Below are positions 2,168-59,661 of a DNA stretch of 64,000 nt, one piece after another (position 1 is the stretch's first letter; each line of letters starts with the position of its first letter). The translations under genes and the position numbers were made by a program. This DNA is from Pseudobdellovibrionaceae bacterium (GTDB lineage Bacteria > Bdellovibrionota > Bdellovibrionia > Bdellovibrionales > Bdellovibrionaceae), in NCBI GenBank assembly GCA_039810425.1, contig JBDHWW010000013.1, positions 11,250 to 75,249 on the forward strand, given 5' to 3'. Under the pieces are notes generated by a model. The model saw only the letters and a program-made list of their open reading frames with translations. It had not been told where the DNA came from and did no database searches.

Positions 2168-3166
2168 CTACGTGTTGTAGCCCCATTCAAGTGCGAGTGC
2201 GGCCATTGACATTCCTCCGCCAGAACCTAAAAGAACTACAAGGTCGCCCTTTTTCATCTTGTGGTCATGGGCGGCGTCCGCCAATGCCATACCTATGGAA
2301 GCGCTGCCGGTGTAACCGAACCGATCCATAATATAGTGAGCTTTATCGCGAGAAACTTCGAGGCGATCCATTGTTTCGTAAATGCTCTGAACGTTAAACT
2401 GAGTAATAAAGAAGTGAGAAATATCCTGAGGGCGCTTATCCATACGCTCGAGCAAGGTTTTTGTCAGGCGTGGCCAGTGGATGCCGTTTGTTTCAGGCGG
2501 AATACGCTTGGGAAAGGCTAAAAGGTGTTTCTTCGAATGCAAGACATCTTCGTTCACTGGAATTGCGGAGCCACCGGCATAGATCCCCATATAGTCATGG
2601 TATTGGCCATCAGTATAAAGTTCGCTTGTGATAAAACCCGCGGTATCTGCCGTCGGCTGAAGAACTGCCGCACCGGCACCATCCGCGAATAAAGAGGCGA
2701 TCTTATAGTCATCGAAGTTGAGGTACTTGCTCATGGCGTATGCACCGACGACGAGTATATTTTGATATTTGGAATCACTCGCGATATATTTGCTCGCGAT
2801 ATCACAACCAGTCACGAAGCCTGCACAAGCAGTGTTGATATCAAATGTGCCGGCCTTCGTTGCCCCCATGCGATATTGGACAACGGACGCTGTTGAAGGG
2901 GAAAGATAGTCGGGCGTGTCTGTTGACACAATAATAAGGTCGAGATCTTTTGCGCTGATACCGGCATTTTTCAAGGCTTCTTCAGCCGCAGGAATAATGA
3001 GGTCGGATGTGGTCTGATCTGATTTCATCCAACGACGTTCTCGGATATTTCTGTTTTCTGCCAGAAAGGTTCCGATGTCTTTCTTATAGAGATCATTGAA
3101 GTATTGATTTGTAACAACACGTTCAGGTGCATACATACCAGTGCCGGCAATCGTTGCTTTTCTCAT
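2168..3166 (-). CDS. KAS III/FabH-family protein with atypical active site
   Basis: DINTACAGF (catalytic Cys) and LFADGAGA; usual HQAN and GNT motifs read TQFN and GYT. Confidence 0.85.
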   Translation of the reverse strand: MRKATIAGTGMYAPERVVTNQYFNDLYKKDIGTFLAENRNIRERRWMKSDQTTSDLIIPAAEEALKNAGISAKDLDLIIVSTDTPDYLSPSTASVVQYRMGATKAGTFDINTACAGFVTGCDIASKYIASDSKYQNILVVGAYAMSKYLNFDDYKIASLFADGAGAAVLQPTADTAGFITSELYTDGQYHDYMGIYAGGSAIPVNEDVLHSKKHLLAFPKRIPPETNGIHWPRLTKTLLERMDKRPQDISHFFITQFNVQSIYETMDRLEVSRDKAHYIMDRFGYTGSASIGMALADAAHDHKMKKGDLVVLLGSGGGMSMAALALEWGYNT

Positions 3167-3319
3167 ATAATTATTCCTTTCAAACCAATTCGTGTAAGAC
3201 GATGTACAAATCTTTTTTTGGCTTTGGCAAGAAGTAAAATATAGAGTTTTTACTCAAAACGCAGAGTGAAAAAATCATATATGTTGACCGGGCAATATGC
3301 CTGGGGGATATCAGCATTC

Positions 3320-4072
3320 ATGACAAACTTAAGTTTTAACTTCAATAATAAATCCGCGATCGTTACTGGAGGAGCTTCTGGTATCGGTTTTCAAATCACA
3401 AAATCTTTCCTCGCCGCAAGCGCAAATGTCAGCGTGTGGGACTACTCGGACAGTGCTCTTGCGCAAGCAAAAGCGGAACTTGGCCAGTTCACAAGCCAAT
3501 TGCATTTCGCGAAAGTAGATGTGGGTAACAGGGACTCGTGCGCGCAAGCGGCTTCATCTGTTCCTTGGGCTGTGGATATCTTGGTGAATAACGCGGGAAT
3601 CACGCGCGATAAATCTTTTGCCAAGATGACGGGCGAAGAGTGGGACGCCGTGATCGGCACAAATCTTACTGGTTTGTTCAACGTCACAAAATCTGTTTTT
3701 GAAAAATTCAATGCCACGTCGGCTCATAAGCGCATCGTGAACATTTCGAGTGTCGTTGCTCTCTATGGAAACTTTGGCCAAACGAACTACGTTGCGGCAA
3801 AGGCGGGTGTCATTGGAATGACCAAAACATGGGGTAAAGAATTCGCTCGTAAAGGTTTTACAGTGAACGCCATTGCGCCTGGCTTTATCAAGACGGCCAT
3901 GACACAAGCGATGCCGAAAGAGGTGTTGGAACAAATGGCTTCTAAGGTTCCGGCGCAACGTCTGGGCGAAGTTGAAGACATCGCCAACACGGTGTTGTTC
4001 CTTTCGTCTGAACAAGCAACTTACATCAACGGAGCGGTGATCAACGTTGATGGCGGTCTAGTGATAGGTTAA
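3320..4072 (+). CDS. fabG: 3-oxoacyl-ACP reductase / acetoacetyl-CoA reductase (SDR)
   Basis: TGGASGIG, NNAGITRD, NFGQTNYVAAKAG, VNAIAPGFI. Confidence 0.85.
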   Translation: MTNLSFNFNNKSAIVTGGASGIGFQITKSFLAASANVSVWDYSDSALAQAKAELGQFTSQLHFAKVDVGNRDSCAQAASSVPWAVDILVNNAGITRDKSFAKMTGEEWDAVIGTNLTGLFNVTKSVFEKFNATSAHKRIVNISSVVALYGNFGQTNYVAAKAGVIGMTKTWGKEFARKGFTVNAIAPGFIKTAMTQAMPKEVLEQMASKVPAQRLGEVEDIANTVLFLSSEQATYINGAVINVDGGLVIG

Positions 4073-36976: not shown

Positions 36977-38191
36977 TTAGGGCTGAATTTTCGGAGCGCG
37001 ATGAGCGGCAAAGATCACTCCGGAAATTACGGTAATGATGGAAGCCGCCACATAAGGGGCGCCAGGGAAGGGCTTTTCAATTCCCGTCGCCGTCAGGCGT
37101 GCAAATAATTCGGTATAGAGGAGCGGTCCTAAGATCGCGGTGAGGCTGATTAAAGCCACGAGGGTACCCTGAAGTTCACCTTGTTCTTGCGATGGAGTCT
37201 CGCGCGAAATCAAAGACTGCAAAGCCGGCCCGGCAATGCCCGCGATAGCAGAGGGAATCAAAATCGCATACATTATCCAACTCTCTGTTGCAAAGGCATA
37301 GCCCGCGTAAGCCAAGGCGCTCACGACAATAGCGATAAAAACAGAGCGCCATTCGCCCAACTTCGGAATCAAAATGCGGGTCAAGCCACCTTGAACTACG
37401 GCCGTTGCAATCCCCACCACTGAAAGAGAAATACCGATGTCCGTCGGCGACCACCTAAATTTGTACTCAGTAAAAAGCGCCCAGCTAGCCGGATGCACTT
37501 GGCCCGCGAAATAAAGGAGAAAATTCACCCAAATCAATGCGAGAATCGGCGAAGGCTTTAGGATCTTTGCCAGAGACTTTAATGGATTCAATTTTTTGAT
37601 ATCGATCTGACGGCGAAGGTCTTTTGGTAAGGACTCCGGTAAGATAAAGACGCCGAATACGAAGTTCAAAAGATTCAAAGCCGCCGCTGCGAGGAACGGA
37701 TACTGGTGACCCAAGGAACCTGTGAAACCACCGATGGCGGGACCGACGATGAAGCCAAAGCCAAACGCGGCGCCGATCAAACCGAAATTCGCCGCGCGAT
37801 TGTTGTCATCACTAATATCCGCCATGTAGGCCGTCGCCACCGTCATGCTCGCCCCCGTGAGGCCCGCGATCACGCGCCCAATGAAAAGAATCGAAAGATT
37901 CGGTGCAAACGCCATGAGGATGTAGTCGAGAACCGCGCCGATAAGGGATACTAGCAAAACCGGGCGCCGGCCGAAGCGATCTGAAAGCGCGCCAAGGACC
38001 GGCGAGGCAATAAACTGCATCAATGCGTAGACAGAAATAAAGTAGCCATAGTAGTGGCTGACAAAACTGGGGTCGTCAGAAAAACGGCGGATCAAGTCCG
38101 GCAGAACGGGAATCAAAATGCCGATCCCCAATGCATCCAAGAAAATGGTGGCAAAAATAAACTGTACGCTGGCTTTTTTCTTATTCATCAA
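36977..38191 (-). CDS. TCR/Tet-family MFS efflux transporter
   Basis: LDALGIGILIPVLP, GALSDRFGRRPVLL, QGELQG. Confidence 0.88.
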   Translation of the reverse strand: MMNKKKASVQFIFATIFLDALGIGILIPVLPDLIRRFSDDPSFVSHYYGYFISVYALMQFIASPVLGALSDRFGRRPVLLVSLIGAVLDYILMAFAPNLSILFIGRVIAGLTGASMTVATAYMADISDDNNRAANFGLIGAAFGFGFIVGPAIGGFTGSLGHQYPFLAAAALNLLNFVFGVFILPESLPKDLRRQIDIKKLNPLKSLAKILKPSPILALIWVNFLLYFAGQVHPASWALFTEYKFRWSPTDIGISLSVVGIATAVVQGGLTRILIPKLGEWRSVFIAIVVSALAYAGYAFATESWIMYAILIPSAIAGIAGPALQSLISRETPSQEQGELQGTLVALISLTAILGPLLYTELFARLTATGIEKPFPGAPYVAASIITVISGVIFAAHRAPKIQP

Positions 38192-41957: not shown

Positions 41958-43214
41958 TTAGCGGTTCCACTTGAAGCCGATTTGGCCGCTGGCTCTCTCG
42001 AGGGCTGAGAGCTCCTGAGTGTTGTTTCCGAAGCTATAGTTTGCCTCGGCAAAGAAAGTCCAAGCATCACCCACAGCCGTGTCCCACGCCAGTTGGACGG
42101 AGGAGGACTGGTCGGTCAGGGACTGAATATAGCGAAGAAATACGTTGTTATTCTGAATAAGGAGATCGGGTATGCGCAACGAGGCATAGCCATAGTGCTG
42201 CCCTAAGAGCTCGCGACCGGAATTTAAGATGCGTTCTAAATTTTCATTGCCACGCGGGTGTTGCGGGACTGCCGACTGGAAAGCGGCAAGCATATCTTCT
42301 TGCAACAGGCCGCAAGAGTTGTAAACATACTCTAAGCGGAAGTCCATGCCTCCTTCCCAGCGAATTCCGCCGACGGCAAGAGTATTCCAAGTTTCATTGT
42401 TACGAACATAGACCATATCGTAGAGAAGACTAGGCGAGATGTCCGGCATGTACTGGGCAGAACCTTGGGTATGGCGGGCATCGAGGTAGATGCTGAATCC
42501 TGGAGTGAGCTCCGAGTTAAAATATTCGCCGGCAAATGGGATCGTGTCATCGATGGTACCACCCGCCATGCCAAGGTAGTTCAAAGCATTACGGCCCCGG
42601 TATTCAATCTTAACGACTCCCTTTGGCTTGAATTTCTGCTCGTAGGTCCAGAAGGACTGACCGTTATTCATGGGCTCCGCGATGGTAATCACGCTCCAGC
42701 GGCTATTGGGGCTCCAATTGGCACGCAGAAGAAAACGTCCGTCTTCACGGTAAGTATAGGAGCGCTGATCGCGGCGGAAATGAAAGAATGGATTTGTTGG
42801 GCTGATAAACTCTGCCGGCCCCCATTGGTAGTTTTGCAGGCCTGCTGCCAAAGTCAGGCGGCGATTCGGATCGCCTTCAAGGAAAGCCTCGGGAAGAGAG
42901 GCCTCACCCGTGAATGTAGTCTTCGTCTCCTCCGTATCCAGATAGCGATACTGATTCACCCAGCCCTGAAAGCGGGGACGAAAGACCCAATGCGTGCCAC
43001 TTTGCCAAGTGTACTTGGTATTGATTCGGAGGTCCGACTGAAAACGGGCTTCTGGATTATCAAGGCGTCGGCCCGTTGGATCGATCAGGCTTTCCTGGCC
43101 CCGCTCCGTGCCTTGAGCAGAGTTGTACCACTCGATATCCCAGCGAAAGCTCTGTGCGGCGGCTGGAAGAGTCGCGCACAAGAGCAGGGCTAGAATGACC
43201 AAATTTCTAAACAT
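41958..43214 (-). CDS. Putative outer-membrane beta-barrel protein
   Basis: Signal peptide; 'AAGLQNYQWGPAEFISPTNPF'; aromatic amphipathic strands; ends QIGFKWNR. Confidence 0.65.
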   Translation of the reverse strand: MFRNLVILALLLCATLPAAAQSFRWDIEWYNSAQGTERGQESLIDPTGRRLDNPEARFQSDLRINTKYTWQSGTHWVFRPRFQGWVNQYRYLDTEETKTTFTGEASLPEAFLEGDPNRRLTLAAGLQNYQWGPAEFISPTNPFFHFRRDQRSYTYREDGRFLLRANWSPNSRWSVITIAEPMNNGQSFWTYEQKFKPKGVVKIEYRGRNALNYLGMAGGTIDDTIPFAGEYFNSELTPGFSIYLDARHTQGSAQYMPDISPSLLYDMVYVRNNETWNTLAVGGIRWEGGMDFRLEYVYNSCGLLQEDMLAAFQSAVPQHPRGNENLERILNSGRELLGQHYGYASLRIPDLLIQNNNVFLRYIQSLTDQSSSVQLAWDTAVGDAWTFFAEANYSFGNNTQELSALERASGQIGFKWNR

Positions 43215-47495: not shown

Positions 47496-48068
47496 TTAGT
47501 CCTTCTTAAATTTTAAAATACCAGCGATGCGCTCTTCATGCTCTTTAACTGTCTTCTGATAGACTTCTTTGTCCGCATCGTAGAAGCGTTTGAGCGTCTT
47601 ATCGATGTGTTCTTTGCCGTATTCGCCCTCCATGTTTTTCAGAGCTTGTGTCACCCATTCGATGTGCCACTTTTCATCTTCAACAATGAGGTCGAGTGTC
47701 TTTTTAATCTCAGGATTTAAGTCCTGAGCCTGACGATGTAGAGCATACTGTCCAATCACGCGTTTTTCAAAGATCAACGTGATGCCCAAAACTTCCATGA
47801 TATTCGCCGGCATTCCCGCAGCAGAAATATACTGGTCCTGATAAGCGGTATCGAGTTTGATGGGTTCGTGTCCAAGAGTTTGTAAGCAACGAGTCCAGAA
47901 CCAAGAGTGCTGAGATTCATCGGCAAAATGTTTTGTGAGATCCGTTTGAATCGGACCTGGCGGCAATGATTTTGCGAGACGGCCGAAAAAGAGAGCGCCC
48001 GAGATTTCACTCGTGCGATAAAAGCTCAGAAGCCATCTTTCATTCTCTGTTAAAGGCTGGATTTTCAT
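47496..48068 (-). CDS. Ferritin-like diiron protein
   Basis: E (TSEIS), DESQH, E (FEKR), DEKWH four-helix ligand pattern. Confidence 0.8.
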   Translation of the reverse strand: MKIQPLTENERWLLSFYRTSEISGALFFGRLAKSLPPGPIQTDLTKHFADESQHSWFWTRCLQTLGHEPIKLDTAYQDQYISAAGMPANIMEVLGITLIFEKRVIGQYALHRQAQDLNPEIKKTLDLIVEDEKWHIEWVTQALKNMEGEYGKEHIDKTLKRFYDADKEVYQKTVKEHEERIAGILKFKKD

Positions 48069-49159
48069 TAGGCGCCTCCTTTAGTGAATTTTGTTTGAGC
48101 AAGGTGCTGGCAGGTTTTTCGAACGATATCTTCCATGGCTGCCGTCTTGTAACCAGGGAGCAAAGACTGAAGAGCTTCGTTAGAAACTTCTTTCTTCACG
48201 AAGAGCTGACGGCCAAACGGAGAAATACTCGCAAGGCCCTGATTCAGAACGCTGCCGCCGAAACCTTTCATATTTGTCACGAGCGTATCAAAAGATTTCT
48301 CGTCAGCAAAAAGAGGCTTTAGCAAACGTCTTGATTTAAACATTTCGTCTTTGTTGAATTCTTCAAAAGCAATATCAATAAATCGACCGAGTGGAATACT
48401 CGCGGCTTGGTCGTAACAGACGTGATAGATTTTCTGACTCTGACCTTTGTTCACGACTGCGGCTAAAGACTTCGCAGTGAATTCGCCGTCCACAAGGTGA
48501 ATCGGTGTTTCAGCACGGCCCGGAAGCAAAGAAATCAAACCATAGTAGAAAAGCTTAAGAGTGTTATGAATGGCGTTGTGCTGAATCACGGTGCCGCTAT
48601 CGCCATCCGCGATGATTGTAGCAACGCGAGCGATTCTCCACGGGAGGTTCGAGAATTGAGTGCGAATGGCTTCTTCGACTTCCCATTTTGAGCGTTCGTA
48701 GTGATTTGCAAAAACAGGAGAGCTAAAGAATTCTTCCTTGATCGGGCCCGCTGCCATACCTGAAGCATAAAGAGTGCTCACGTAAGTGAAGTTTTCCAGC
48801 TTCGGCAACTCAGATACAAATTTTAATAGTGCCAAAGAGCCATCGCGGTTCACAGAGTTCGCAGTGACTTCATCAACGTTAAACGCGGTTTTTGCGGCGT
48901 TGTGGATAATGATGTTGATATCGTTACGTTGAGCTTGCAGGTTCTCAACGAGATTTGCCAAATCACTCTGGACTATTTCAACGCGAGCGTGCTTAGCCGC
49001 AGGCACATCTTTCAAAAGATCTGCTTTGCGCTTTTCTAGCTCTTCTGCGGAACCTGCACGCACAGGAACTAATAGAGTCTCCGAGCGTTCTGTCAGAAGT
49101 TGCTCGAGGAGTTTTTTGCCGATGTAGCCGGTGGCACCGGTCAGAAGAATCTTAGCCAT
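48068..49159 (-). CDS. Thioester/fatty-acyl reductase-like extended SDR
   Basis: TGATGYIG, HNAA, YVST, NHYERSKWEVE. Confidence 0.82.
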   Translation of the reverse strand: MAKILLTGATGYIGKKLLEQLLTERSETLLVPVRAGSAEELEKRKADLLKDVPAAKHARVEIVQSDLANLVENLQAQRNDINIIIHNAAKTAFNVDEVTANSVNRDGSLALLKFVSELPKLENFTYVSTLYASGMAAGPIKEEFFSSPVFANHYERSKWEVEEAIRTQFSNLPWRIARVATIIADGDSGTVIQHNAIHNTLKLFYYGLISLLPGRAETPIHLVDGEFTAKSLAAVVNKGQSQKIYHVCYDQAASIPLGRFIDIAFEEFNKDEMFKSRRLLKPLFADEKSFDTLVTNMKGFGGSVLNQGLASISPFGRQLFVKKEVSNEALQSLLPGYKTAAMEDIVRKTCQHLAQTKFTKGGA

Positions 49160-50024
49160 TTTGGATCTCCTTCATCGGCCAGTGAGCAGGATTTGTCCCG
49201 TAACGGCTGATAATAGCAAAGAGCCATCTTTCTAAACCGAAAGCGATGCAAGCGCTGGTCGCTGTTTCGCCTTGGTATTTGATGTTAAAACTTTCGCCAA
49301 AGTAGTCTTTGTGGAAATTGGTCGAACCAATCGAGAGGTCTTTGTTAAAGATCATCTCGTGTTTTACAGGGTCTAATTGCTGCATGATGAACTTCGGATT
49401 GCTCTCTGGATTAAAGAATGGATCCGTTGCTACTTCCCATGAAATGCCGAGATCGAGCTTCGCAAGCTTTTCAGTCACGATATCGCGGTACTTCTTTACG
49501 AAGCTGCGAACGTGATCTTGGGGGCCGATGCAAACGATCTCACGCATATTGAAAGACCACTGACGTTGCAAAGGTTTGTAGTAAAGTTCACGACGGAAGC
49601 AATTCGCACGTGTTGTCAGGTGCAAAGGCTCTTGCAGATCCTGATCTTGGAAGTGGATATAGAAATGATAACAAGCGGCCGGTGTTAAACAGTCGCAGAC
49701 CTTGTCGATTTCAGTAAGATGGACTTTGCCATCGCTAAAACGTGGGCCTTCAGTGAACTTTTCCAGGTTCTTGGCGTCGTTTTGATCCAAAGCCACCGGG
49801 AAAGTAATTAAATGAGGGAATGATTTAAAATAATCAAGCTTGTTGAGTTCCGCCGCTTGAATGAAAGGCGGGAAATAAAATTCACGAGCCTGGGCCGTCG
49901 CTGCGATTCTTAAAAACATCGCATCAAGAGCTTTAAAGAGCTCAAAAATAGATCCGCTCAGATTTGATTGTCCGTTTGGAATCCATTTATAGCCAGGAAT
50001 CTCGGTGAATTTGATTTCACTCAT
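49152..50024 (-). CDS. Amino acid:[carrier protein] ligase (SerRS catalytic-domain homolog)
   Basis: YFKSFPH, LTPAACYHFY, CFRRE, FNMREIVCIG, ATDPFF, SACIAFGLERW; no tRNA-binding domain. Confidence 0.85.
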   Translation of the reverse strand: MSEIKFTEIPGYKWIPNGQSNLSGSIFELFKALDAMFLRIAATAQAREFYFPPFIQAAELNKLDYFKSFPHLITFPVALDQNDAKNLEKFTEGPRFSDGKVHLTEIDKVCDCLTPAACYHFYIHFQDQDLQEPLHLTTRANCFRRELYYKPLQRQWSFNMREIVCIGPQDHVRSFVKKYRDIVTEKLAKLDLGISWEVATDPFFNPESNPKFIMQQLDPVKHEMIFNKDLSIGSTNFHKDYFGESFNIKYQGETATSACIAFGLERWLFAIISRYGTNPAHWPMKEIQNG

Positions 50025-50275
50025 GTCGCACTCCCAAAGAAGGAAGCATAAATGCTGTCAATCGTGTTGAAAGCACCTGGCTTGATGGCTTTGAGGTTAA
50101 ATTTGGAACCTTTGATTTTCTCAACTTCCAAAATCAACTCCATCACGTGGAGTGAGCTTAAAATGCGGGTTTCCAAAAGGTGTGTATCAAAGGCAAGCTC
50201 TGCCCCAGTCACTTTCTTAGACTTTTTCAAAACCCATTGGCGGAGTGTTTCTTTGACTTCTTGTTCTGTTTTCAT
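50021..50275 (-). CDS. Carrier protein (ACP/PCP-like)
   Basis: 84 aa; DTHLLETRILSSLHVMELI; FNTIDSI; ATGA overlaps on both sides. Confidence 0.75.
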   Translation of the reverse strand: MKTEQEVKETLRQWVLKKSKKVTGAELAFDTHLLETRILSSLHVMELILEVEKIKGSKFNLKAIKPGAFNTIDSIYASFFGSAT

Positions 50276-51135
50276 AACTCGAAAATCTCCTCGATAATGC
50301 CACATTTTTTCAGATAATTTAAACTTACACGAGATGCGCGGACGCGGTGTTCGCGGGCTTTGTCGCTTTCAAACACGCGAGAAGCCAAGTCGTAAGCGTC
50401 TTCAATGCCGGCATCTACGTAGATGTCTGGATTGTAGTATTCACGCCAAGTTGTTACATAGTAACCACGAATGTAGTCGCGAATCCCTTGCAGAGTTTCC
50501 GCCGACCACTGTGGAGAGAATGTTTTAAATAGATCGTTCAAAATCACACGGCCAAACGCCAAGTGACGAACTTCATCTTCGTGGTGATTCGCATTGATAT
50601 CGCGAGAAAGCTGCATCACGCGCTCATCTCGAGCTGTCGTTACGTTGTAATAGTCGACGATCTCTTCGAAAACGAAGACTTTAATAAAAAATAAAAACTC
50701 TTCTTCGCCGGTTGCATATTCACGCGGGAAAACGATTTTGCGATCAGGATAGATCTTGCCTGCGTACTTTTCACAGAAAGTACCGAAGAAGTACATGTGT
50801 TTGTTTTCTTCATCGATAAAGTGATGGATATAGTCCGTCACATCTTGGTTTTCACTCTCGTACAAACGGCGAGTAAGTCCCTCAAGCAAGGACTTTTCAC
50901 CATGAACATTCAGACTAAAGAAATTCACTTCTTCAAAGAAGCTGAGTTTTTTCTTTTGCTCTTCATTGAGAGCTTCCCATTCAGGGGAACCATAGATAGA
51001 GATGAGCTCGGGGCTTACAAACCAGTTATTCTTCTCAAGCTGCTCAGGGAATTGAATATGAGTAAACGGATTGTAGAATCCTTTAATCGATTGAGCAGTC
51101 AGTTTTTTAGCAACTTGTGAGATATCGTGGCTCAT
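50272..51135 (-). CDS. AurF/CmlI-family diiron oxygenase
   Basis: PELISIYG, GE, DEENKH, FEE, HHEDEVRH. Confidence 0.85.
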   Translation of the reverse strand: MSHDISQVAKKLTAQSIKGFYNPFTHIQFPEQLEKNNWFVSPELISIYGSPEWEALNEEQKKKLSFFEEVNFFSLNVHGEKSLLEGLTRRLYESENQDVTDYIHHFIDEENKHMYFFGTFCEKYAGKIYPDRKIVFPREYATGEEEFLFFIKVFVFEEIVDYYNVTTARDERVMQLSRDINANHHEDEVRHLAFGRVILNDLFKTFSPQWSAETLQGIRDYIRGYYVTTWREYYNPDIYVDAGIEDAYDLASRVFESDKAREHRVRASRVSLNYLKKCGIIEEIFEL

Positions 51136-51136
51136 A

Positions 51137-52087
51137 CTACACCTTCTCTAAGATGACGGCCTGCCAGTTCAAACCAAAGCCTGCCATGAAAAGCAGTAAC
51201 TTCTGGCCTGGTTTTACAAGCTTGTCTTCTTCGATTTTAACCAAGTTCACAATATTATCAGAACTGATGATGTGGCCGACTTCCTGAATAGATTTGAAGT
51301 AAACTTTTTCAAACTCAGTTCCCAAAAGGCGGGATAAAATCACCCATGCATTCACATTGGTGTTCTGAGGGATAATCCAGTCGATATCTTCGATTTTAAG
51401 ACCGGACTTATCAAAAAGCTCCGTGAGGAGTCTATGAGTATAACTGAAATAGCTGCCGACAGTTTCGTCGTCATTCGCTTGCGCCATAGCGCCGTTCGTC
51501 AACGCATGTGTTGCAATCAAGCGATAACCTTTTTCTTCGTCGCTCACCACACAAGCAGCAGCGCCGTCAGAAATTACATTATAAGCCTGTTCGTAAGAAG
51601 CGCCTTCTGGAAAGCGATCTGCTGTTACGCAGAGGATTTTCTTTTGCTCTGGCTCTGACAAGATCAAAGCACGGGCAAGGCGCAAAGATCCAAGCATGCT
51701 CGTGCAAGCCTGCTGGTTCAGTCCAAGTACGGCCGCACTTTCAAGACCAAAATCGGCTTGTAAGTGGCTCGCTGGATAGTCCATGAGGTATTTCACATCA
51801 CGGCTTTCTTTAAATTTATTAAAAGATCCGATATTGCCATTCAAAGGAAGGCATGTCGCATAGACAATCGAGTTCACGTTTGTCAGCGCGTTCTTAATCT
51901 GAGAAACTGCGCCCACAGCCAAGTCATAGGCATTTTGCGAAGGTGAACTCATGCGGTGAAACGCAAAGCCCGCCTCAACAAATTGCTGGTAGTCAGTGAG
52001 AAGACGGCCGGCCTTAGACGATTCTTCAATCGACACTCTCTGGTCACCCAGGAAATAAGCCAAATCGTGAACGAAAACGGATTTCAT
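51137..52087 (-). CDS. KAS III-like acyltransferase (CerJ/ChlB6-type motifs)
   Basis: QQACTS Cys, SDGAAA, IIPQNTN, GHIISSD, AGFGLNW. Confidence 0.8.
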   Translation of the reverse strand: MKSVFVHDLAYFLGDQRVSIEESSKAGRLLTDYQQFVEAGFAFHRMSSPSQNAYDLAVGAVSQIKNALTNVNSIVYATCLPLNGNIGSFNKFKESRDVKYLMDYPASHLQADFGLESAAVLGLNQQACTSMLGSLRLARALILSEPEQKKILCVTADRFPEGASYEQAYNVISDGAAACVVSDEEKGYRLIATHALTNGAMAQANDDETVGSYFSYTHRLLTELFDKSGLKIEDIDWIIPQNTNVNAWVILSRLLGTEFEKVYFKSIQEVGHIISSDNIVNLVKIEEDKLVKPGQKLLLFMAGFGLNWQAVILEKV

Positions 52088-52089
52088 TA

Positions 52090-52653
52090 TTAAGCTCCGA
52101 GTTTAGGGAAGAAGCGACCAGTCGTTTTCATATAGTTTTGGTATTCGGAACCGAATGCTGAGTTCGACAAGTTGTTTTCTTCGCGGGCCGCCGTGCGGTT
52201 CAAGATCACGATACACCAAACCATACCCAAGAATGTAATCAAGTGAGGCATCATGATGATTGAAGCCAACTGAGCCGTGATGAAAGAGCTATAGAATGGG
52301 TGACGGATGTATTTGTAAGCACCCCAAGTTACGATGTTTGCTGGTGCATCGTTGTTTTGGTGCCAAAGAGCGAGTGGGATACGGTGAGTACCCATCGTGT
52401 ATGAGATCATGCCGATAGAGAAAGAGCTCAAGATGACGACGGCGATTTCGCCAGCCAACGGAATTGACCAGTACAACTCGAGGCTGATGACGCCGAACTG
52501 TTGCAAGAAGATGAGGACTGCATTCAAGAACAAAGGACCCGCTGTCATCCACCACATCAAATTATAGCGGCCGTCTTTTTTAAAGAAAATGCGTGGAAGA
52601 ATGCCGATATAAGCGAAATTTACGAGGAGTAAAGTGACGAGAGTCCTGTTCAT
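52090..52653 (-). CDS. ICMT/PEMT-family membrane methyltransferase
   Basis: TM helices; GAYKYIRHPFYSS, REE, YQNYMKTTGRFFP. Confidence 0.85.
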   Translation of the reverse strand: MNRTLVTLLLVNFAYIGILPRIFFKKDGRYNLMWWMTAGPLFLNAVLIFLQQFGVISLELYWSIPLAGEIAVVILSSFSIGMISYTMGTHRIPLALWHQNNDAPANIVTWGAYKYIRHPFYSSFITAQLASIIMMPHLITFLGMVWCIVILNRTAAREENNLSNSAFGSEYQNYMKTTGRFFPKLGA

Positions 52654-54302
52654 ACGGTGATCCTTTGTTTTAATAAGAGTTCTTTAACTAAATTCTTTTT
52701 AACTTTTAATGTTGTTGTTTTAGGAAGCGGTTCGGTGAGGAAGATGAATTTCGAAGGACGCTTATAATAACTTAGTTGCATAGTCGCTTGGTGCAGTGAT
52801 TTTTGAATTTGTTCTTGAAGTATAGCATCCGCAGGATTGACGACAACAACTGCTGTCACGATTTCTGTTCCTTTTGTAGCGCCTTGGCTTGATTTCATCC
52901 CGAGGACACAAATTTCCTGGACGTTCGGGATTTCACGCAAGCTTTCTTCAACTTCTTCTGGAGCAACTTTTTTACCACTGCCAAGGACGATCAAGTCCTT
53001 GTTGCGGCCCTTGATAGTAATAAAACCATCAGAGTCGATTTCACCAACATCACCAGTATTAAACCAGCCATCGGCTGAAAGGCAGGCTGCTGTTGCCTCA
53101 GGATTTTTAAAATATCCTTGCATAACGATCGGACCGCGAACCAAAATCTCTTGGGTTTCAGAGTGAAGCTTCACTTCAATTCCATCAAGAGCTTTACCGA
53201 TGCTGCCGGGTTTGTTTATCCCTGGAGAGCTGCACGAAATAACTGGAGCAGTTTCGGTCATTCCGTAGCCTTCAAAGACAGAAACGCCGATGAGTTCAAA
53301 GAATTTTCCTACTTTTAAATCGAGCGCTGAAGCGCCGGAGATGATTTGATGAAGGTCACCACCAAACTTCTTATGAAGAGGATAAAATAAAAGGCGACGA
53401 ATAGATTTGCTCGGAATAAAGCGCGCTAAACGCACGGTCGAATAGAACCAAATGCGTTTTAAAGCGGAAGTGCGAATCTCGCTTTCTATGCCCTTTTTCA
53501 AAGTACGCAAGAACAGCGGTACAACCAGCAAATCGCGGATTTTATTTTCTTTAAAGAATGAAATAATTTGGTGTGGAATCAAAGAGTTTGCGTAATAAAC
53601 GCTGCCGCCACGGCTAAATGGTAATAAGAAGCCGCCGGTAATTTCAAACATATGGTGCAAAGGCAAAATAGACAGCAAGCGGAAGTCTTTCTTCGTGCTG
53701 AAGAGTTCGCCGGCAAGGTCGACTTGAAAATGGACACTTCTGAAAGTTAACATTACAGCTTTAGGCTGGCTTGTTGTGCCAGAAGTAAAAGCCATCAGGA
53801 AGGTCTCATCAGTAGGGCGTGTAAGGGAAGCGAGGTCCGCTGTCACAGCAAAATCCTCGGTCATGACGTCGTTGATACTGAGCAAGCGAAGTTCTTGCGC
53901 GGAGTTTTGCACAAGTTTTTCCCCAATAGCACGAGTCTCATCATTCATGCAGAGTACGAATTTAGCTTCAGAAAATTCAGAGATAAATTTTTGATCAGCA
54001 AGGCTTAAGCGAATATCGACTGGCACGATGATGCCGCCAGCGAGTGGAATCCCAAAGAAACCGACAGAGTATTCAGGGCGAGATTTTGCCAGGATAAGAA
54101 CGCGGTCACCTTTTTGAAGGCCCAAAGAACTCAGCTTTTGTGCGAGTTTCTCGGCATGATGGCAAACATCACTGTAAGTCAGTGGAATCCATGTATGGTT
54201 TTCGGCAGTGCCTTGACGGCCGAAGAATGCCGGACGGGAAGCGTATCGTTCTGAGACGCTTTTTAAGAAGCTATAAATGTCTGTTTGCTCCGGCTTTGCC
54301 AT
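52650..54302 (-). CDS. Long-chain acyl-CoA/ACP ligase (AMP-binding)
   Basis: FTSGTTSQPK, EGYGMTET, WFNTGD, GRNKDLIV, LPKTTTLKVKK. Confidence 0.9.
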   Translation of the reverse strand: MAKPEQTDIYSFLKSVSERYASRPAFFGRQGTAENHTWIPLTYSDVCHHAEKLAQKLSSLGLQKGDRVLILAKSRPEYSVGFFGIPLAGGIIVPVDIRLSLADQKFISEFSEAKFVLCMNDETRAIGEKLVQNSAQELRLLSINDVMTEDFAVTADLASLTRPTDETFLMAFTSGTTSQPKAVMLTFRSVHFQVDLAGELFSTKKDFRLLSILPLHHMFEITGGFLLPFSRGGSVYYANSLIPHQIISFFKENKIRDLLVVPLFLRTLKKGIESEIRTSALKRIWFYSTVRLARFIPSKSIRRLLFYPLHKKFGGDLHQIISGASALDLKVGKFFELIGVSVFEGYGMTETAPVISCSSPGINKPGSIGKALDGIEVKLHSETQEILVRGPIVMQGYFKNPEATAACLSADGWFNTGDVGEIDSDGFITIKGRNKDLIVLGSGKKVAPEEVEESLREIPNVQEICVLGMKSSQGATKGTEIVTAVVVVNPADAILQEQIQKSLHQATMQLSYYKRPSKFIFLTEPLPKTTTLKVKKNLVKELLLKQRITV

Positions 54303-56074: not shown

Positions 56075-57129
56075 CTAGTTCTTCAGTTTCCAGTCTTTTT
56101 CGGTGATGAGTCGGGAACCACGTTTTGAAAACAGATAATTCCAGGCCCATTGGGTCAGAACAGAAACGCGATTCTTGAAATCAATCAAATAGAAAATATG
56201 CACAAAGAGCCACGCCAGCCACGCAATATAACCGGTCATCTTCAAGTGGCCAGACAATGCAATTGCCCGGCGCTTGCCGATGGTTGCCATCTGGCCTTTA
56301 TCAAAATATGCGAACTCTTCGTGGGGGCTGTTTTTAAGGTCTCTGAGAATAGCTTCTGCGACAAAGTGGCCGGCTTGAATGGCTACGGGAGCAAGGCCTG
56401 GCAGCATTTTTCCAGGTGAATATTCGAACGCTGCCATGTCGCCGATGACGAAAACTTCGGGATGCCCCTTTAAAGTAAAGTCTTTGCCGACAAGGACACG
56501 GCCCGCGCGGTCTTTGGATCAATACGACGGAAATCTTTTACCAGAACGGTACGACTGATATCGGCAATAGCACCGGCGAGTTCGACTCCGGTTGGTCCCG
56601 CACCGACGACGACAAATGTTAGCAGGCTTTTGGTGCTTGCGATATCAAGAGCGTTCTCTGCTTGCTCAAAAGCTGCAAGAATACGGCGGCGGATCTCGGT
56701 GGCTTGTTCCAAGGTTTTCAGGCCCGGCGCAAAATCTTCCCAATCATTGCGGCCGAAGTAACTGTGTTGGGCGCCGCAAGCTAAGACAAGATAATCATAG
56801 GCCATCTCGACGGGCTCATCTTTCACCGTGGTGAGGATTGACTTCTTGTTGAGATTTACGCCGGTGATGCGGCCGAGATGGACTTCGATGTTGGAGGTAT
56901 TTGGAAACTGCGCCCGGATCGGGACCGCGATATCCGCGGGATTTAATCCGGCCGTGGCAACTTGATATAAGAGTGGTTGAAACAAGTGATGATTGCGTTG
57001 GTCGACGAGAAGAACGTGAAGTCCCTTTTGATCCGCAAGTTTCTTTGCGGTGTTAAGGCCGGCAAAGCCGCCGCCAACCACGATGGCGATTTTCTTTCCA
57101 TTGAGCTTTTCAGGATGAACAAATTGCAT
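56075..57129 (-). pseudogene. ndh: Type II NADH dehydrogenase with internal deletion and frameshift
   Basis: N-part (GGGFAG, FQPLLYQVAT, GAGPTGVELAG) runs to DPKTAR; C-part resumes in another frame at DRAGRV...FVIGD...DKGQMATIG; the middle segment is absent. Confidence 0.8.
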
Positions 57130-57202
57130 AGGATCCTCCGGGCGAATGCCCACAGAATGATCCTGTTCATCATAGTTTGGCAATCACTTGCGGCGAAGGT
57201 TC

Positions 57203-57236
57203 AAAGAAGAAAGGGGGAAAAGATGTCTTTTCCCCC
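57203..57236 (-). terminator. Rho-independent terminator of aspS2
   Basis: GGGGGAAAAGA-TG-TCTTTTCCCCC stem with TTCTTCTTT tail on the minus strand. Confidence 0.7.
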
Positions 57237-57248
57237 CCGAGTGTGTCT

Positions 57249-58550
57249 TTAAGGCGTCAGTCGATTTCTATCGCGCGGGTAGAGTGTCGCTTCACGCACG
57301 TTTGTAAGTCCTAGAATTTGCGCTGTAAGGCGTTCAGCCCCAATCGCAAAGCCGCCATGCGGTGGCATGCCGAGCTCAAACATACGCAAATGGCTTTCAA
57401 AGGAAGCCACTTCCATTCGGCGCTGCTTGATCGCGGCCTCGAGTTCACTGCGGCGATGTAATCTTTGACCACCAGTAGTAATTTCAAGACCACGGTAGAG
57501 TAAGTCGAAGCTTTGCGCTGCGCCCGCAGCACCACGAGATGCTGTATAGAACGGTCGCGCAGAGAGCGGAAACCCTAGAACAAAGACGGCAGGCACGCCA
57601 AACTCTTTTTCTGCAAGAGTGCACAGCTGTCGTTCGGCCTCACCATCCAAGTCGTCGACAAGGTCTGTTCTGCCAAACGCTTGTTTCAATCTTTCAAGGC
57701 ACTCGCCGAATTCCCATACAGGCGCTTTCTCAAGACTTGTCAGTGGCTTTTGCTGAAAAGTTTCAAGGGTCACGCGATGTTCTGAATTCAATCGCTCAAA
57801 CATAAAGTTGAGTAAACCGCGCTCAAGCTCGATGATCTCTTCGGGGCCTTGAATGAAACCCATCTCGACGTCGAGGGAATAGTACTCCGTTAAGTGCCGG
57901 CTTGTTGCGTGAGGCTCGGCCCTGTAAACGTGGCCGGTTTCAAACACGCGCTCAAATCCAGCGACTCCTTGCTCTTTGTAAAACTGCGGACTCTGTGCGA
58001 GGTACGCGACTTTATCGAAGTACTTCATCTGAAAGAGGTTCGTGCCTCCTTCGGTGCCTCCGGCAACAATTTTTGACGTCACGATCTCGGTGAAATGATT
58101 CTTTCGCAAGTATTCGCGAAAGAGCTCGATCACAGAAGCCTGCAACTTGAATATGCCGCCAGATTTTTCACTACGTAAGACCAGCGGGCGGTTTTCGATT
58201 TGCAGCTCCGAAGAAATCTTCTCGACTTGCGATGAAGAGTTAAACGGCAACTGCACGATCGAGGACTCGCTCAATTTTCGAATGGAAGTCACATGCAGTT
58301 CAAAGCCAGATTGAGAACGTGGTTCTAAATTCACATTACCATGAATTTCAACGCAATCATCCAGTCTGAGATGCAGATCATTATTATCCAAATTCGTCGG
58401 CATCACACACTGCAGGATTCCGGTGCAGTCTTTCACAACAATAAACGTGGTTTGCGCTAATACGCGGAGATAATAAATCCATCCGCAAATAGAAATGGTT
58501 TGTCCCTGTACCGGCGTTACTTCGCCGATAAAACTTCGCCCTTGATGCAC
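57249..58550 (-). CDS. aspS: Non-discriminating (archaeal-type) aspartyl-tRNA synthetase
   Basis: OB-fold N-terminus, TEGGTNLF, LAQSPQFYK, YRAEPHATSRHLTEY, GMPPHGGFAIGAERL, YPRD; no GAD insertion; GTG start after AGGAGGT. Confidence 0.88.
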   Translation of the reverse strand: MHQGRSFIGEVTPVQGQTISICGWIYYLRVLAQTTFIVVKDCTGILQCVMPTNLDNNDLHLRLDDCVEIHGNVNLEPRSQSGFELHVTSIRKLSESSIVQLPFNSSSQVEKISSELQIENRPLVLRSEKSGGIFKLQASVIELFREYLRKNHFTEIVTSKIVAGGTEGGTNLFQMKYFDKVAYLAQSPQFYKEQGVAGFERVFETGHVYRAEPHATSRHLTEYYSLDVEMGFIQGPEEIIELERGLLNFMFERLNSEHRVTLETFQQKPLTSLEKAPVWEFGECLERLKQAFGRTDLVDDLDGEAERQLCTLAEKEFGVPAVFVLGFPLSARPFYTASRGAAGAAQSFDLLYRGLEITTGGQRLHRRSELEAAIKQRRMEVASFESHLRMFELGMPPHGGFAIGAERLTAQILGLTNVREATLYPRDRNRLTP

Positions 58551-58700
58551 TTGGCACCTCCTATGGTGGCTCTTCATTTGTTTGTGTCTGATTACTGGAG
58601 CCCAAGACTCGTGTGGGCGGTGCCATCCAGCTTCCGGGAAATCCGGCGCTCTTTGATTCGTACTGTCGTGTGTATAGAGTTGTCATCCTCATCGACGAGT
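58551..58700 (-). ncRNA. Putative translational T-box riboswitch leader
   Basis: Minus strand CUGGA-UGGCACC-GCCCA...UGGGC-UCCAG (58630-58595) forms an antiterminator-like helix with a 7-nt UGGNACC bulge, directly upstream of an aaRS gene. Confidence 0.7.
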
Positions 58701-58779
58701 TGCAGCCAGAATAATGGAAAGCCTGTTATTTGTCTTATCAATTGTTTTTATGAGGGGGATAAGCAATTATGACTGTCAT

Positions 58780-59661
58780 ATGGAAGACATCATTATTCAC
58801 GGACGTGAAAGAGATTTAGGTGGTTTTTTAGTTCATCGTTCACTGCCAAGCGCTCAGCGACGCTTCTGTGGGCCGTTTGTTTTCTTGGATCACATGGGGC
58901 CGATGGAAGTGACGGAAGAGCGTCAGATGAACGTGCGCCCTCACCCGCACATTGGTCTTGCAACTGTGACATATCTTTTTGATGGTCGTGGTTATCATCG
59001 CGACAGCATCGGTTCAAAACAAATGATCACTCCTGGCGATCTGAATTGGATGACAGCAGGACGTGGAATCGTTCATTCAGAAAGAACTCCAAAAGAAGAT
59101 CAGGTCGCTCATCCGCACAAATGGATGCACGGAGTTCAAATCTGGGTGGGTTTGCCGGTTGAGCATGAAGAATGTGAACCGACGTTTGCACACTGGCCGA
59201 GTGATAAAATGCCACGTGTGAAATTCGGAAAGAATATTAACGCGAAAGTCATGATCGGTGAGCACGGCGAGGCAAAGTCTCCGGTGAAGTGCCTGTCACG
59301 CACGTTATTTATGGATATTCCATGCGAACAAGCAGGCCACGACAAATGGTCTTTCAATGAACAAGAGCTAGGTCTGTTTTTAGTAAATGGCTCTGCAACG
59401 GTCAACGGTCATGAGCTTAAGGGCGATGATTTGATTCTGGTGGCTGATCCGAAAAATATCGATATCAAGTACGCTGAGAACACGCGCATTCTTGCGATCG
59501 GCGGAGAGCCTTTCCCAGAGCCGCGCCACATCTGGTGGAATTTCGTTTCTTCAAGCAAAGAACGTATTCATCAAGCCGCAGCCGCTTGGAAGGAGCAAAC
59601 CTTCGGGCATGTCGAAGGCGAAGTCGACTTTATTCCGCTGCCAAATGATCAACTGCCTTAG
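58780..59661 (+). CDS. Pirin family protein
   Basis: GPFVFLDHMG, RPHPHIG, MTAGRGIVHSE, WWNFVSS. Confidence 0.95.
   Translation: MEDIIIHGRERDLGGFLVHRSLPSAQRRFCGPFVFLDHMGPMEVTEERQMNVRPHPHIGLATVTYLFDGRGYHRDSIGSKQMITPGDLNWMTAGRGIVHSERTPKEDQVAHPHKWMHGVQIWVGLPVEHEECEPTFAHWPSDKMPRVKFGKNINAKVMIGEHGEAKSPVKCLSRTLFMDIPCEQAGHDKWSFNEQELGLFLVNGSATVNGHELKGDDLILVADPKNIDIKYAENTRILAIGGEPFPEPRHIWWNFVSSSKERIHQAAAAWKEQTFGHVEGEVDFIPLPNDQLP

Follow-up and report, generated by a model that had tools for sequence, protein, structure and literature searches.

How the gene for an archaeal-type aspartyl-tRNA synthetase (AspRS) is controlled in a Gram-negative bacterium is the question raised by the 64,000-nucleotide (nt) stretch of DNA analyzed here (the window, 64 kb), in which this gene, aspS2, is preceded on the minus strand by a 151-nt leader (58551-58701). 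A preliminary description had proposed that the leader is an unusually compact translational T-box riboswitch. It was found to belong to a covarying family of leaders that precedes one clade of AspRS genes, and its derivation from a T-box, like the homology of the whole family to T-boxes, is close to certain. The interpretation favored here, with rather more confidence than doubt, is that of a translational T-box riboswitch with an ultrashort stem I, specific for tRNA-Asp and inherited together with the archaeal-type AspRS gene that it controls. Of the earlier proposal, the T-box ancestry and, most likely, the translational type stood, but the copy in the window is a deletion derivative and not a representative of a minimal class. 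The hairpin, stem III, bulged helix and Shine-Dalgarno sequence (SD) before a GTG start that had been listed were all found in place when read from the minus strand, as follows.

58665-58701, minus strand: remnant of stem I, with AACUC (58697-58701), the 5' strand of a K-turn (GUCGAU) and a weak hairpin (from sequence and fold)
58652-58664, minus strand: linker with the remainder of the stem II and IIA/B region, AGUACGAAUCAAA (from alignment and family model)
58632-58651, minus strand: purine string GAGCG (58647-58651), stem III CCGG/CCGG and AA (58632-58633) (from sequence)
58594-58631, minus strand: antisequestrator (T-box helix), made up of A1, a bulge and A2 with loop CACGAGUCU (from sequence, covariation and family model)
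58552-58561, minus strand: SD and acceptor-end look-alike GGAGGUGCCA, predicted to pair with T-box strand UGGCACCGCC in the OFF state (from complementarity and fold)
58561-58692, minus strand: 43-codon upstream open reading frame (uORF) across the leader, judged incidental (from the list of open reading frames, ORFs)
57249-58550, minus strand: aspS2, archaeal-type aspartate--tRNA(Asn) ligase of 433 amino acids (aa), GTG start at 58548-58550 (from NF003483 and Pfam)

The 5' hairpin consists of GUCG (58693-58696), AU, GAG (58688-58690), the loop GAUGACAA (58680-58687), CUC (58677-58679) and CGAC (58665-58668); GAC lies within the loop at 58682-58684 and is followed by AAC. When the 5' 58 nt were isolated and folded, they adopted this hairpin, as first drawn, albeit weakly (-6.7 kcal/mol). 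Stem III pairs CCGG (58643-58646) with CCGG (58634-58637) across the loop AUUUC, and the resulting GAGCG-CCGG(AUUUC)CCGG-AA matches the RRRxG-stem III-AA motif of the T-box discriminator domain (PMC7583486). Of the antisequestrator, A1 is (G)CUGGA/UCCAG(U), with CUGGA at 58626-58630 and UCCAG at 58595-58599; the 7-nt bulge UGGCACC (58619-58625) separates it from A2, formed by GCCCA (58614-58618) and UGGGC (58600-58604).

Leaders ahead of one AspRS clade

A scan of genome contigs with the window's AspRS returned 80 loci. The closest relatives of the enzyme are from Bdellovibrio (locus L077, 80-81% identity; L001, 74%); about 50 further loci, 58-65% identical, are from Acidobacteriota, Pseudomonadota, Cyanobacteriota (Calothrix), Myxococcota, Bdellovibrionota and other phyla, and the remaining loci, about 40% identical, are from Bacillota, Deinococcota, Spirochaetota and others. 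Within the closer set, GGAUGG(C/U)ACC was found 53-195 nt upstream of the start. The leaders so marked share one architecture, that of an ultrashort stem I with an invariant GAC loop, a stem II, a IIA/B element, a stem III and the bulged helix, and begin with the consensus AACUC-NNNGA(A/C)-GAGG-A(C/A)AGACC-CCUC-UGAGAGG.

Forty-three of these leaders were aligned with that of the window using MAFFT (alignment A1), and from this alignment RNAalifold returned, unprompted, a stem I of two helices, lower and upper, with a 7-nt loop, a stem II of 7 + 4 pairs, stem III, A1, the 7-nt bulge and A2. Standard pairs occupied 95.0% of 1470 cells, versus 34.9-50.7% when the 3' partners were slid by 1-3 columns, and compensatory changes on both sides were seen in 24 of the 34 pairs; the covariation that the preliminary description had asked for is thus strong, and the bulged helix is conserved, with 99.2% and 96.8% of cells paired in helices 6 and 7 (A1 and A2, respectively). 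Stem III, at columns 184-188/211-215, showed compensatory changes in four of its five pairs. None of 500 shuffles reached any of five covariation measures, a control that overstates significance as the rows are related, unlike the slid-partner control, which is not inflated by relatedness. Three acidobacterial leaders (L004, L006 and L032) were observed to keep stem II and to lack the IIA/B element, and the family therefore tolerates natural loss of the pseudoknot.

A covariance model (R1), built from 42 leaders and leaving out those of the window and L017, matched 46 loci at 68-164 bits. The closer clade comprises 51 loci, of which L018 and L027 have no upstream DNA; hence, a homologous leader is carried by 46 of 49 testable loci, and a match was absent from L003, L005 and L045 despite the presence of upstream DNA. 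Matches outside the seed were L035 (144.5 bits), L024 (104.2), L020 (71.0, cut at the contig end) and L017 (68.4), while eleven canonical T-boxes of Bacillota gave 12.6-35 bits. The window matched at 58594-58703 on the minus strand, over model positions 1-170, with 47.2 bits (E ~1e-12). A second match in the window, at 42538-42564 on the minus strand (GGGUGGUACC..., 10.4 bits), lies inside a coding ORF of 418 aa and was dismissed as chance.

The Infernal check with a T-box model suggested at the outset had a divided outcome. Rfam RF00230, the T-box family with a gathering score of 93 bits, had no match in the window, but a permissive search of nine family loci aligned L002 (57.6 bits), L042 (49.9) and L077 (42.2) below threshold and end to end (model positions 1-219), with 5 nt in place of 74 distal stem I positions and with stem II (GAA...AGUA), the IIA/B region, stem III and the T-box helix all aligned; no T-box match was obtained for the other six. 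Among the distant Bacillota and Chloroflexota homologues of aspS2, L048, L051, L057 and L079 carry T-boxes above the gathering score. Another canonical T-box was seen before the aspS2 of L067, a contig titled as a metagenome-assembled genome (MAG) of Mycobacterium leprae; its AspRS groups with those of Symbiobacteriaceae and Paenibacillaceae, and the contig is probably mis-binned. With the discriminator domain intact, homology to a covarying family established and members of this family aligned by RF00230, the T-box origin of the window's leader was upheld.

The AspRS tree (79 rows, quick search, LG+G4) is unrooted, and no donor is claimed; L024 and L060, whose frames stop after 179 and 160 aa, respectively, were left out. 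All leader-bearing genes fell on one side of a branch with SH-aLRT 100 (50 rows: 45 with a leader plus L018, L027, L003, L005 and L045), and it was therefore concluded that leader and gene travelled together, through at least seven phyla. The window's AspRS grouped with those of L077 and L001 at SH-aLRT 100 which, with its identity to that of L077, agrees with the Gram-negative host first supposed: a relative of Bdellovibrio, by its appearance. At L024, from a Steroidobacteraceae MAG, the leader (2681-2837, 104 bits with R1) was seen to lack the stem I apex and the GAC loop, and the aspS2 frame (2890-3829) is the one that stops after 179 aa; this locus is either a decaying copy or an assembly error.

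Specificity and mode of control

All 44 aligned leaders, that of the window included, carry the codon GAC in the loop of stem I, as expected of the specifier originally proposed. AAC, put forward as a second, Asn candidate, follows GAC in the window only, the family loop being A(C/A)AGACC, and was rejected. The variable position of UGGN, noted to be C in the window and to fit the G73 discriminator base, was C in 33 and U in 11 of the 44 leaders and never a purine. G73 is general in bacterial tRNA-Asp, and both the tRNA-Asp and the tRNA-Asn gene at the locus of the distant homologue L048 end in G-CCA; either C or U could pair with G73, which fits the proposed specificity. Among 50 loci searched, none of those belonging to the family yielded a tRNA-Asp gene. 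Autoregulation by AspRS through an anticodon mimic was considered and rejected, as the conserved loop displays the codon GAC and not the anticodon GUC.

A scan of the minus strand in 58300-59000 found no terminator-like site, including between the T-box and the start, in agreement with the absence of a U-tract terminator noted earlier. For the expression platforms, 44 sequences were folded, each beginning with the T-box strand and ending 12 nt beyond the start, with L035 and the two loci of ambiguous start, L012 and L039, left out. In 25 of the 44, the minimum free energy (MFE) hairpin paired the 3' strand of the antisequestrator (GGUUCCAGCAG) with the SD/start region (e.g., ...GGAAAGCUGCCAUGGAA), an arrangement described for actinobacterial ileS; in seven (window, L077, L004, L006, L014, L060 and, partly, L034) the T-box 5' strand itself paired with the SD region, and in the other 12 this region was free or paired elsewhere, the antisequestrator being the MFE structure in ten of them. 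At L012 (182-345) and L039 (2439-2585), the T-box was seen about 150 nt before the aligned AspRS start, with a sequestrator-like hairpin (CAGCAGUAC...GUACUGCUG) directly followed by GUG or AUG, which suggests an N-terminal extension or a short upstream ORF.

In the window, UGGCACCGCC and GGAGGUGCCA form nine of ten Watson-Crick pairs, as had been noted; after mononucleotide shuffling of the 46-nt linker between helix and start, 5 of 20000 sequences attained this complementarity. The alternative pairing over the SD before the GTG was predicted in both the MFE structure and the ensemble; the former pairs UGGCACCG.. with ..GGUGCCA (predicted sequestration of the SD), and unpaired probabilities over the whole leader were 0.066 for the bulge, 0.015 for UGCC and 0.23 for GGAGG of the SD. 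Those of L077 were similar, whereas L001 differed, with 0.81 for its bulge. The predicted OFF fold was -22.6 kcal/mol versus -11.8 for the antisequestrator alone (L077, -29.7 versus -10.6), and GGAGGUGCC is identical in the three Bdellovibrio leaders (window, L077 and L001).

Given the lack of a terminator and the predicted pairing of T-box strand and SD region in both MFE and ensemble, translational control is most likely, and this part of the interpretation is considered probable from the predicted folds. The canonical T-boxes before distant Bacillota and Chloroflexota homologues raise the alternative of a transcription-attenuating T-box, as in most Gram-positive bacteria. No hairpin with a U tract lies between T-box and start on the minus strand, however, only 43 nt separate the T-box helix from the SD, and in the MFE structures of 32 of 44 platforms a T-box strand (the 3' strand in 25, the 5' strand in 7) is paired with the SD/start region, which together leave attenuation very improbable. 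Equally improbable is control through the 43-codon uORF, as a leader peptide or by translational coupling. This frame does span the leader, from ATG at 58692 (a second ATG is at 58686) to TAG at 58561-58563, and its stop overlaps the SD; however, the ATG belongs to a conserved RNA motif (GAUGA of the K-turn), 33 of 44 family leaders have no ATG in their first 16 nt, the corresponding frame of L077 stops after 11 codons, and no SD was read upstream of the uORF. The uORF, to which attention had been drawn earlier, is thus present but not conserved, and is considered incidental.

The translational T-box would function as follows. Without ligand, the T-box strand (A)UGGCACCGCC would pair with GGAGGUGCCA, hiding the SD, and GCCA of GGAGGUGCCA would occupy the UGGC that otherwise reads the 3' end of the tRNA. 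Uncharged tRNA-Asp would then offer its G73-C-C-A end to UGGC.

The reduced copy and its setting

AACUC and the T-box are 73 nt apart in the window compared to 137 in L077 and 126 in L001, and the stretch of leader between the same boundaries in A1 is 111 nt long compared to 147-211 nt in the family. In the MAFFT alignment, the window was aligned up to GAGGAUG, left empty for about 88 columns, and resumed near the end of IIA/B. R1, in turn, paired CUC of the window with GAG of GAUGAGG, reducing the stem I apex from 19 positions to 1 nt and stem II from 45 positions to 9 nt. Since GAUGAGGAU-GACAACUCU and the GAAGAGGACAGACCCCUCU of the family agree at 14 of 19 positions, survival of the specifier hairpin and a single deletion of UGAGAG, stem II and the 5' part of IIA/B is favored, as read from the sequence. 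The 5' strand of the K-turn was kept, and its UGAGAG 3' strand is absent (family, CUC-NNNGAA-GAGG-A(C/A)AGACC-CCUC-UGA-GAG); stem II with its S-turn and the IIA/B pseudoknot, which in translational T-boxes with an ultrashort stem I make up for the lack of a distal stem I, are likewise absent. Downstream of the deletion the leader is complete, from GAGCG, stem III and AA to A1, UGGCACC and A2. Adjacent to the bulge, the window has G-C as its A2 pair; among the 44 leaders it is G-U in 34, G-C in 5 and A-U in 5. The lack of stem II noted earlier was thus borne out, but the view of the compact form as a T-box class of its own was not; stem II is present in all 43 aligned relatives, and the two closest leaders are 53-64 nt longer between AACUC and the T-box, and therefore the window's leader is regarded as a deletion derivative and not as a minimal design. 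One deletion of about 55-75 nt in this genome would have taken the 3' half of the K-turn, stem II and most of IIA/B, and the leftover decoding module would be a weak hairpin with the loop GA-UGACA-A.

Several observations weigh against the reading of this leader as a T-box riboswitch. At E <= 10, Rfam returned no T-box in 58300-59000 but only two snoRNA-type chance matches, and no Rfam 15 family matched the whole window at gathering score. The MFE of the whole leader, -39.3 kcal/mol, had a z of 0.02 relative to shuffles, i.e., its stability provides no signal, and the window has the lowest score of the family with R1. The predicted OFF state exceeds the antisequestrator alone in stability by 10.8 kcal/mol. 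For the pairing with the SD, the three Bdellovibrio sequences available show almost no covariation, and any SD is by nature partly complementary to CACC(N)CC, the UGCC(A) extension being the part of the pairing beyond this ordinary complementarity. The weak specifier hairpin is aligned differently by MAFFT and the covariance model, so that homology of the GAC loop is not certain. Finally, decoding may have been lost because the window lacks stem II, the 3' half of the K-turn and IIA/B; deletion of the IIA/B pseudoknot was found to lower tRNA binding about 1200-fold (PMC7583486).

The lack of an Rfam match and the unremarkable folding energy would also be expected of a chance resemblance to a T-box. 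The match to the family model, the discriminator motifs in their proper order and the leaders at 46 of 49 testable loci of the clade already refute this explanation, and its probability is negligible.

A weightier alternative, though still an unlikely one, is that the leader is a relic, a T-box descendant in which the deletion destroyed tRNA recognition and the rest of which either damps translation constitutively through the SD pairing or is decaying. The missing stem II, K-turn 3' half and IIA/B, each of which is needed in T-boxes with a short stem I (PMC7583486), are consistent with this, as are an upper stem I helix reduced to 3 bp in a 5' hairpin of only -6.7 kcal/mol, the lowest R1 score of the family, and the decay seen at L024, where both the specifier loop and the end of the aspS2 frame are gone. 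On the other hand, the window's aspS2 is intact and its end branch in the AspRS tree (0.16) equals in length that of L077 (0.15), a locus with a complete leader. Moreover, the fourth pair of stem III, A-U in L077 and L001, has become G-C in the window's lineage, both bases having changed with the pairing preserved, and all discriminator motifs are present. With the SD locked at -22.6 kcal/mol without release, the gene would be expected to be silent and decaying.

Whether the T-box in the window still responds to tRNA is, on its sequence, regarded as slightly doubtful. The loop reads U-GAC-A, compared to A-GAC-C in the family, and has five rather than three bases complementary to U33-G-U-C-A37 of the anticodon loop, which in the tRNA-Asp of L048 is CUGUCAC. 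Glycine T-boxes without stem II have been explained by a strong codon-anticodon duplex (PMC7583486), and by analogy the longer complementarity might offset the lost stem II. It is accordingly put forward, as a tentative and rather unlikely proposal, that the leader functions as a minimal T-box without K-turn, stem II or elbow platform, in which tRNA-Asp would be read by a 5-base loop-loop interaction and its 3' end by the discriminator domain, with UGGC held OFF by the GCCA copy adjacent to the SD. If so, it would be the smallest natural T-box, within a family that reaches at least seven Gram-negative phyla.

The gene itself is of full length. Its product, a class II synthetase with the Pfam tRNA-synt_2 domain and an anticodon-binding OB fold, scored 469.6 bits with NCBIfam NF003483 (aspartate--tRNA(Asn) ligase; cut-off 353), and the start of the profile coincides with the residue of the GTG start at 58550. 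Two further elements flank leader and gene.

58708-58736, minus strand: putative promoter with -35-like AAGACA (58731-58736), a 17-nt spacer and -10-like TATTCT (58708-58713) (from sequence reading, with a geometry shared by L077 and L001)
57201-57238, minus strand: intrinsic terminator after aspS2, a 12-bp stem followed by a U-rich tail (from a terminator scan)

Downstream of the aspS2 stop, four nested terminator predictions were obtained at 57238-57211, versus 0.1 expected in shuffles. A consensus scan of the window's leader region at its own thresholds found no promoter. TATTCT ends 6 nt before the A of AACUC; in alignment A3, the window resembles L077 (TTGGCA-N17-TAACTT-N7-AACUC) and L001 (TTGGCA-N17-TAATCT-N7-ACUC), and TACAAT or TATAAT lies 6-9 nt upstream of AACUC at many family loci. 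This conserved geometry would place the transcript start at AACUC. A block at 58737-58766 on the minus strand, upstream of the promoter (CTTATCCC.C.CATAAAAACAATT), is conserved in L077 and partly in L001. Upstream of aspS2 is a divergent pirin gene; the start assigned to it by the ORF finder (ATG 58714; 58714-58790, plus strand) would overlap the putative aspS2 promoter, and because the Pirin domain begins only at residue 40, its true start is probably further in.

Just 3' of aspS2, an NADH-dehydrogenase-like gene (Pyr_redox_2) is split into minus-strand ORFs 56470-57183 (237 aa), which matches profile positions 4-177 of 291 only, and 56075-56437 (120 aa); the split gene (56075-57183) may reflect a frameshift or an internal deletion. 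Farther along the minus strand, 47496-54302 encodes acyl-CoA ligase-like, FabH-like, amino acid--[ACP] ligase-like and thioester-reductase-domain ORFs, all below curated cut-offs, which suggests a locus for biosynthesis of lipids or small molecules. A major facilitator superfamily (MFS) transporter (36977-38191, minus strand) resembles the Tet(A)/(B)/(C) efflux family at 391 bits, compared to a cut-off of 475, and is not called a resistance gene. Neither gatCAB, asnS or a further aspS, nor any tRNA gene, was found within the 64-kb window.

Comparison with known systems

T-boxes have been described as a device of Gram-positive bacteria; in the survey of Wels et al. 2008, they were reported from 2 of 125 proteobacterial genomes, both upstream of leuA, and from none of 13 cyanobacterial genomes (PMC2494555). 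Translational (class II) ileS T-boxes with an ultrashort stem I are known from Actinobacteria, including the structures from M. tuberculosis and N. farcinica (PMC7583486, PMC7778990), and the translational model of TBDB was applied to Actinobacteria and, beyond them, only to class I hits whose stem I was truncated (PMC7778990). Few bacteria carry a second AspRS gene of archaeal type, and B. bacteriovorus HD100 has a single AspRS, of bacterial type (PMC4206432). No description of an aspS2 T-box family, whether in Acidobacteria, Bdellovibrio or elsewhere, was found in the searchable literature, although one may exist outside it, e.g., in the TBDB tables; standard annotation misses the family because its members score 42-58 bits against the 93 of Rfam.

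The family is the more important result compared to the window's copy. Preceding one AspRS clade in Acidobacteriota, Pseudomonadota, Cyanobacteriota, Bdellovibrionota, Myxococcota and others, it widens the range of tRNA-sensing riboswitches and provides a second, independent set of short-stem-I T-boxes in which to probe what stem II and the K-turn do. The window's copy amounts to a deletion experiment made by nature: should it still switch, the minimum now accepted for a T-box needs revision, and should it not, it shows the decay of such a switch while the gene survives.

The family most resembles the actinobacterial ileS T-boxes. It shares with them a specifier in a short stem I, no distal platform, a stem II with GAA/AGUA S-turn motifs, a IIA/B element, stem III, the 7-nt UGGN-ACC bulge between A1 and A2, an SD-sequestering alternative and the lack of a terminator, and 25 of its 44 platforms sequester through the 3' strand of the antisequestrator; in the window and six relatives, by comparison, the T-box 5' strand itself pairs with the SD region. 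Unlike them, the family has the specifier GAC, an archaeal-type AspRS gene and hosts from Gram-negative phyla, and the window's copy is without stem II, IIA/B and half of the K-turn. With the canonical T-boxes of RF00230, eleven of which R1 cross-detects, the family has in common the T-box sequence, a bulged helix of the antiterminator type, a K-turn, stem III and the succession of elements within stem II, but it lacks the long stem I (AG bulge and distal loop) and the terminator, and scored 42-58 bits in three of nine loci and not at all in the other six or in the window. Like the glyQS T-boxes, the window's T-box is without a stem II domain; unlike it, they keep a long stem I with an elbow-binding platform and a K-turn. 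A T-box of Clostridium acetobutylicum (Saad et al. 2012, 2013) reportedly controls a non-discriminating AspRS together with GatCAB, as a canonical Gram-positive, transcriptional T-box reported to read two codons. Like it, the leaders stand ahead of genes of the tRNA-dependent route to asparagine, such as a non-discriminating AspRS; unlike it, only the one codon, GAC, is conserved in the family.

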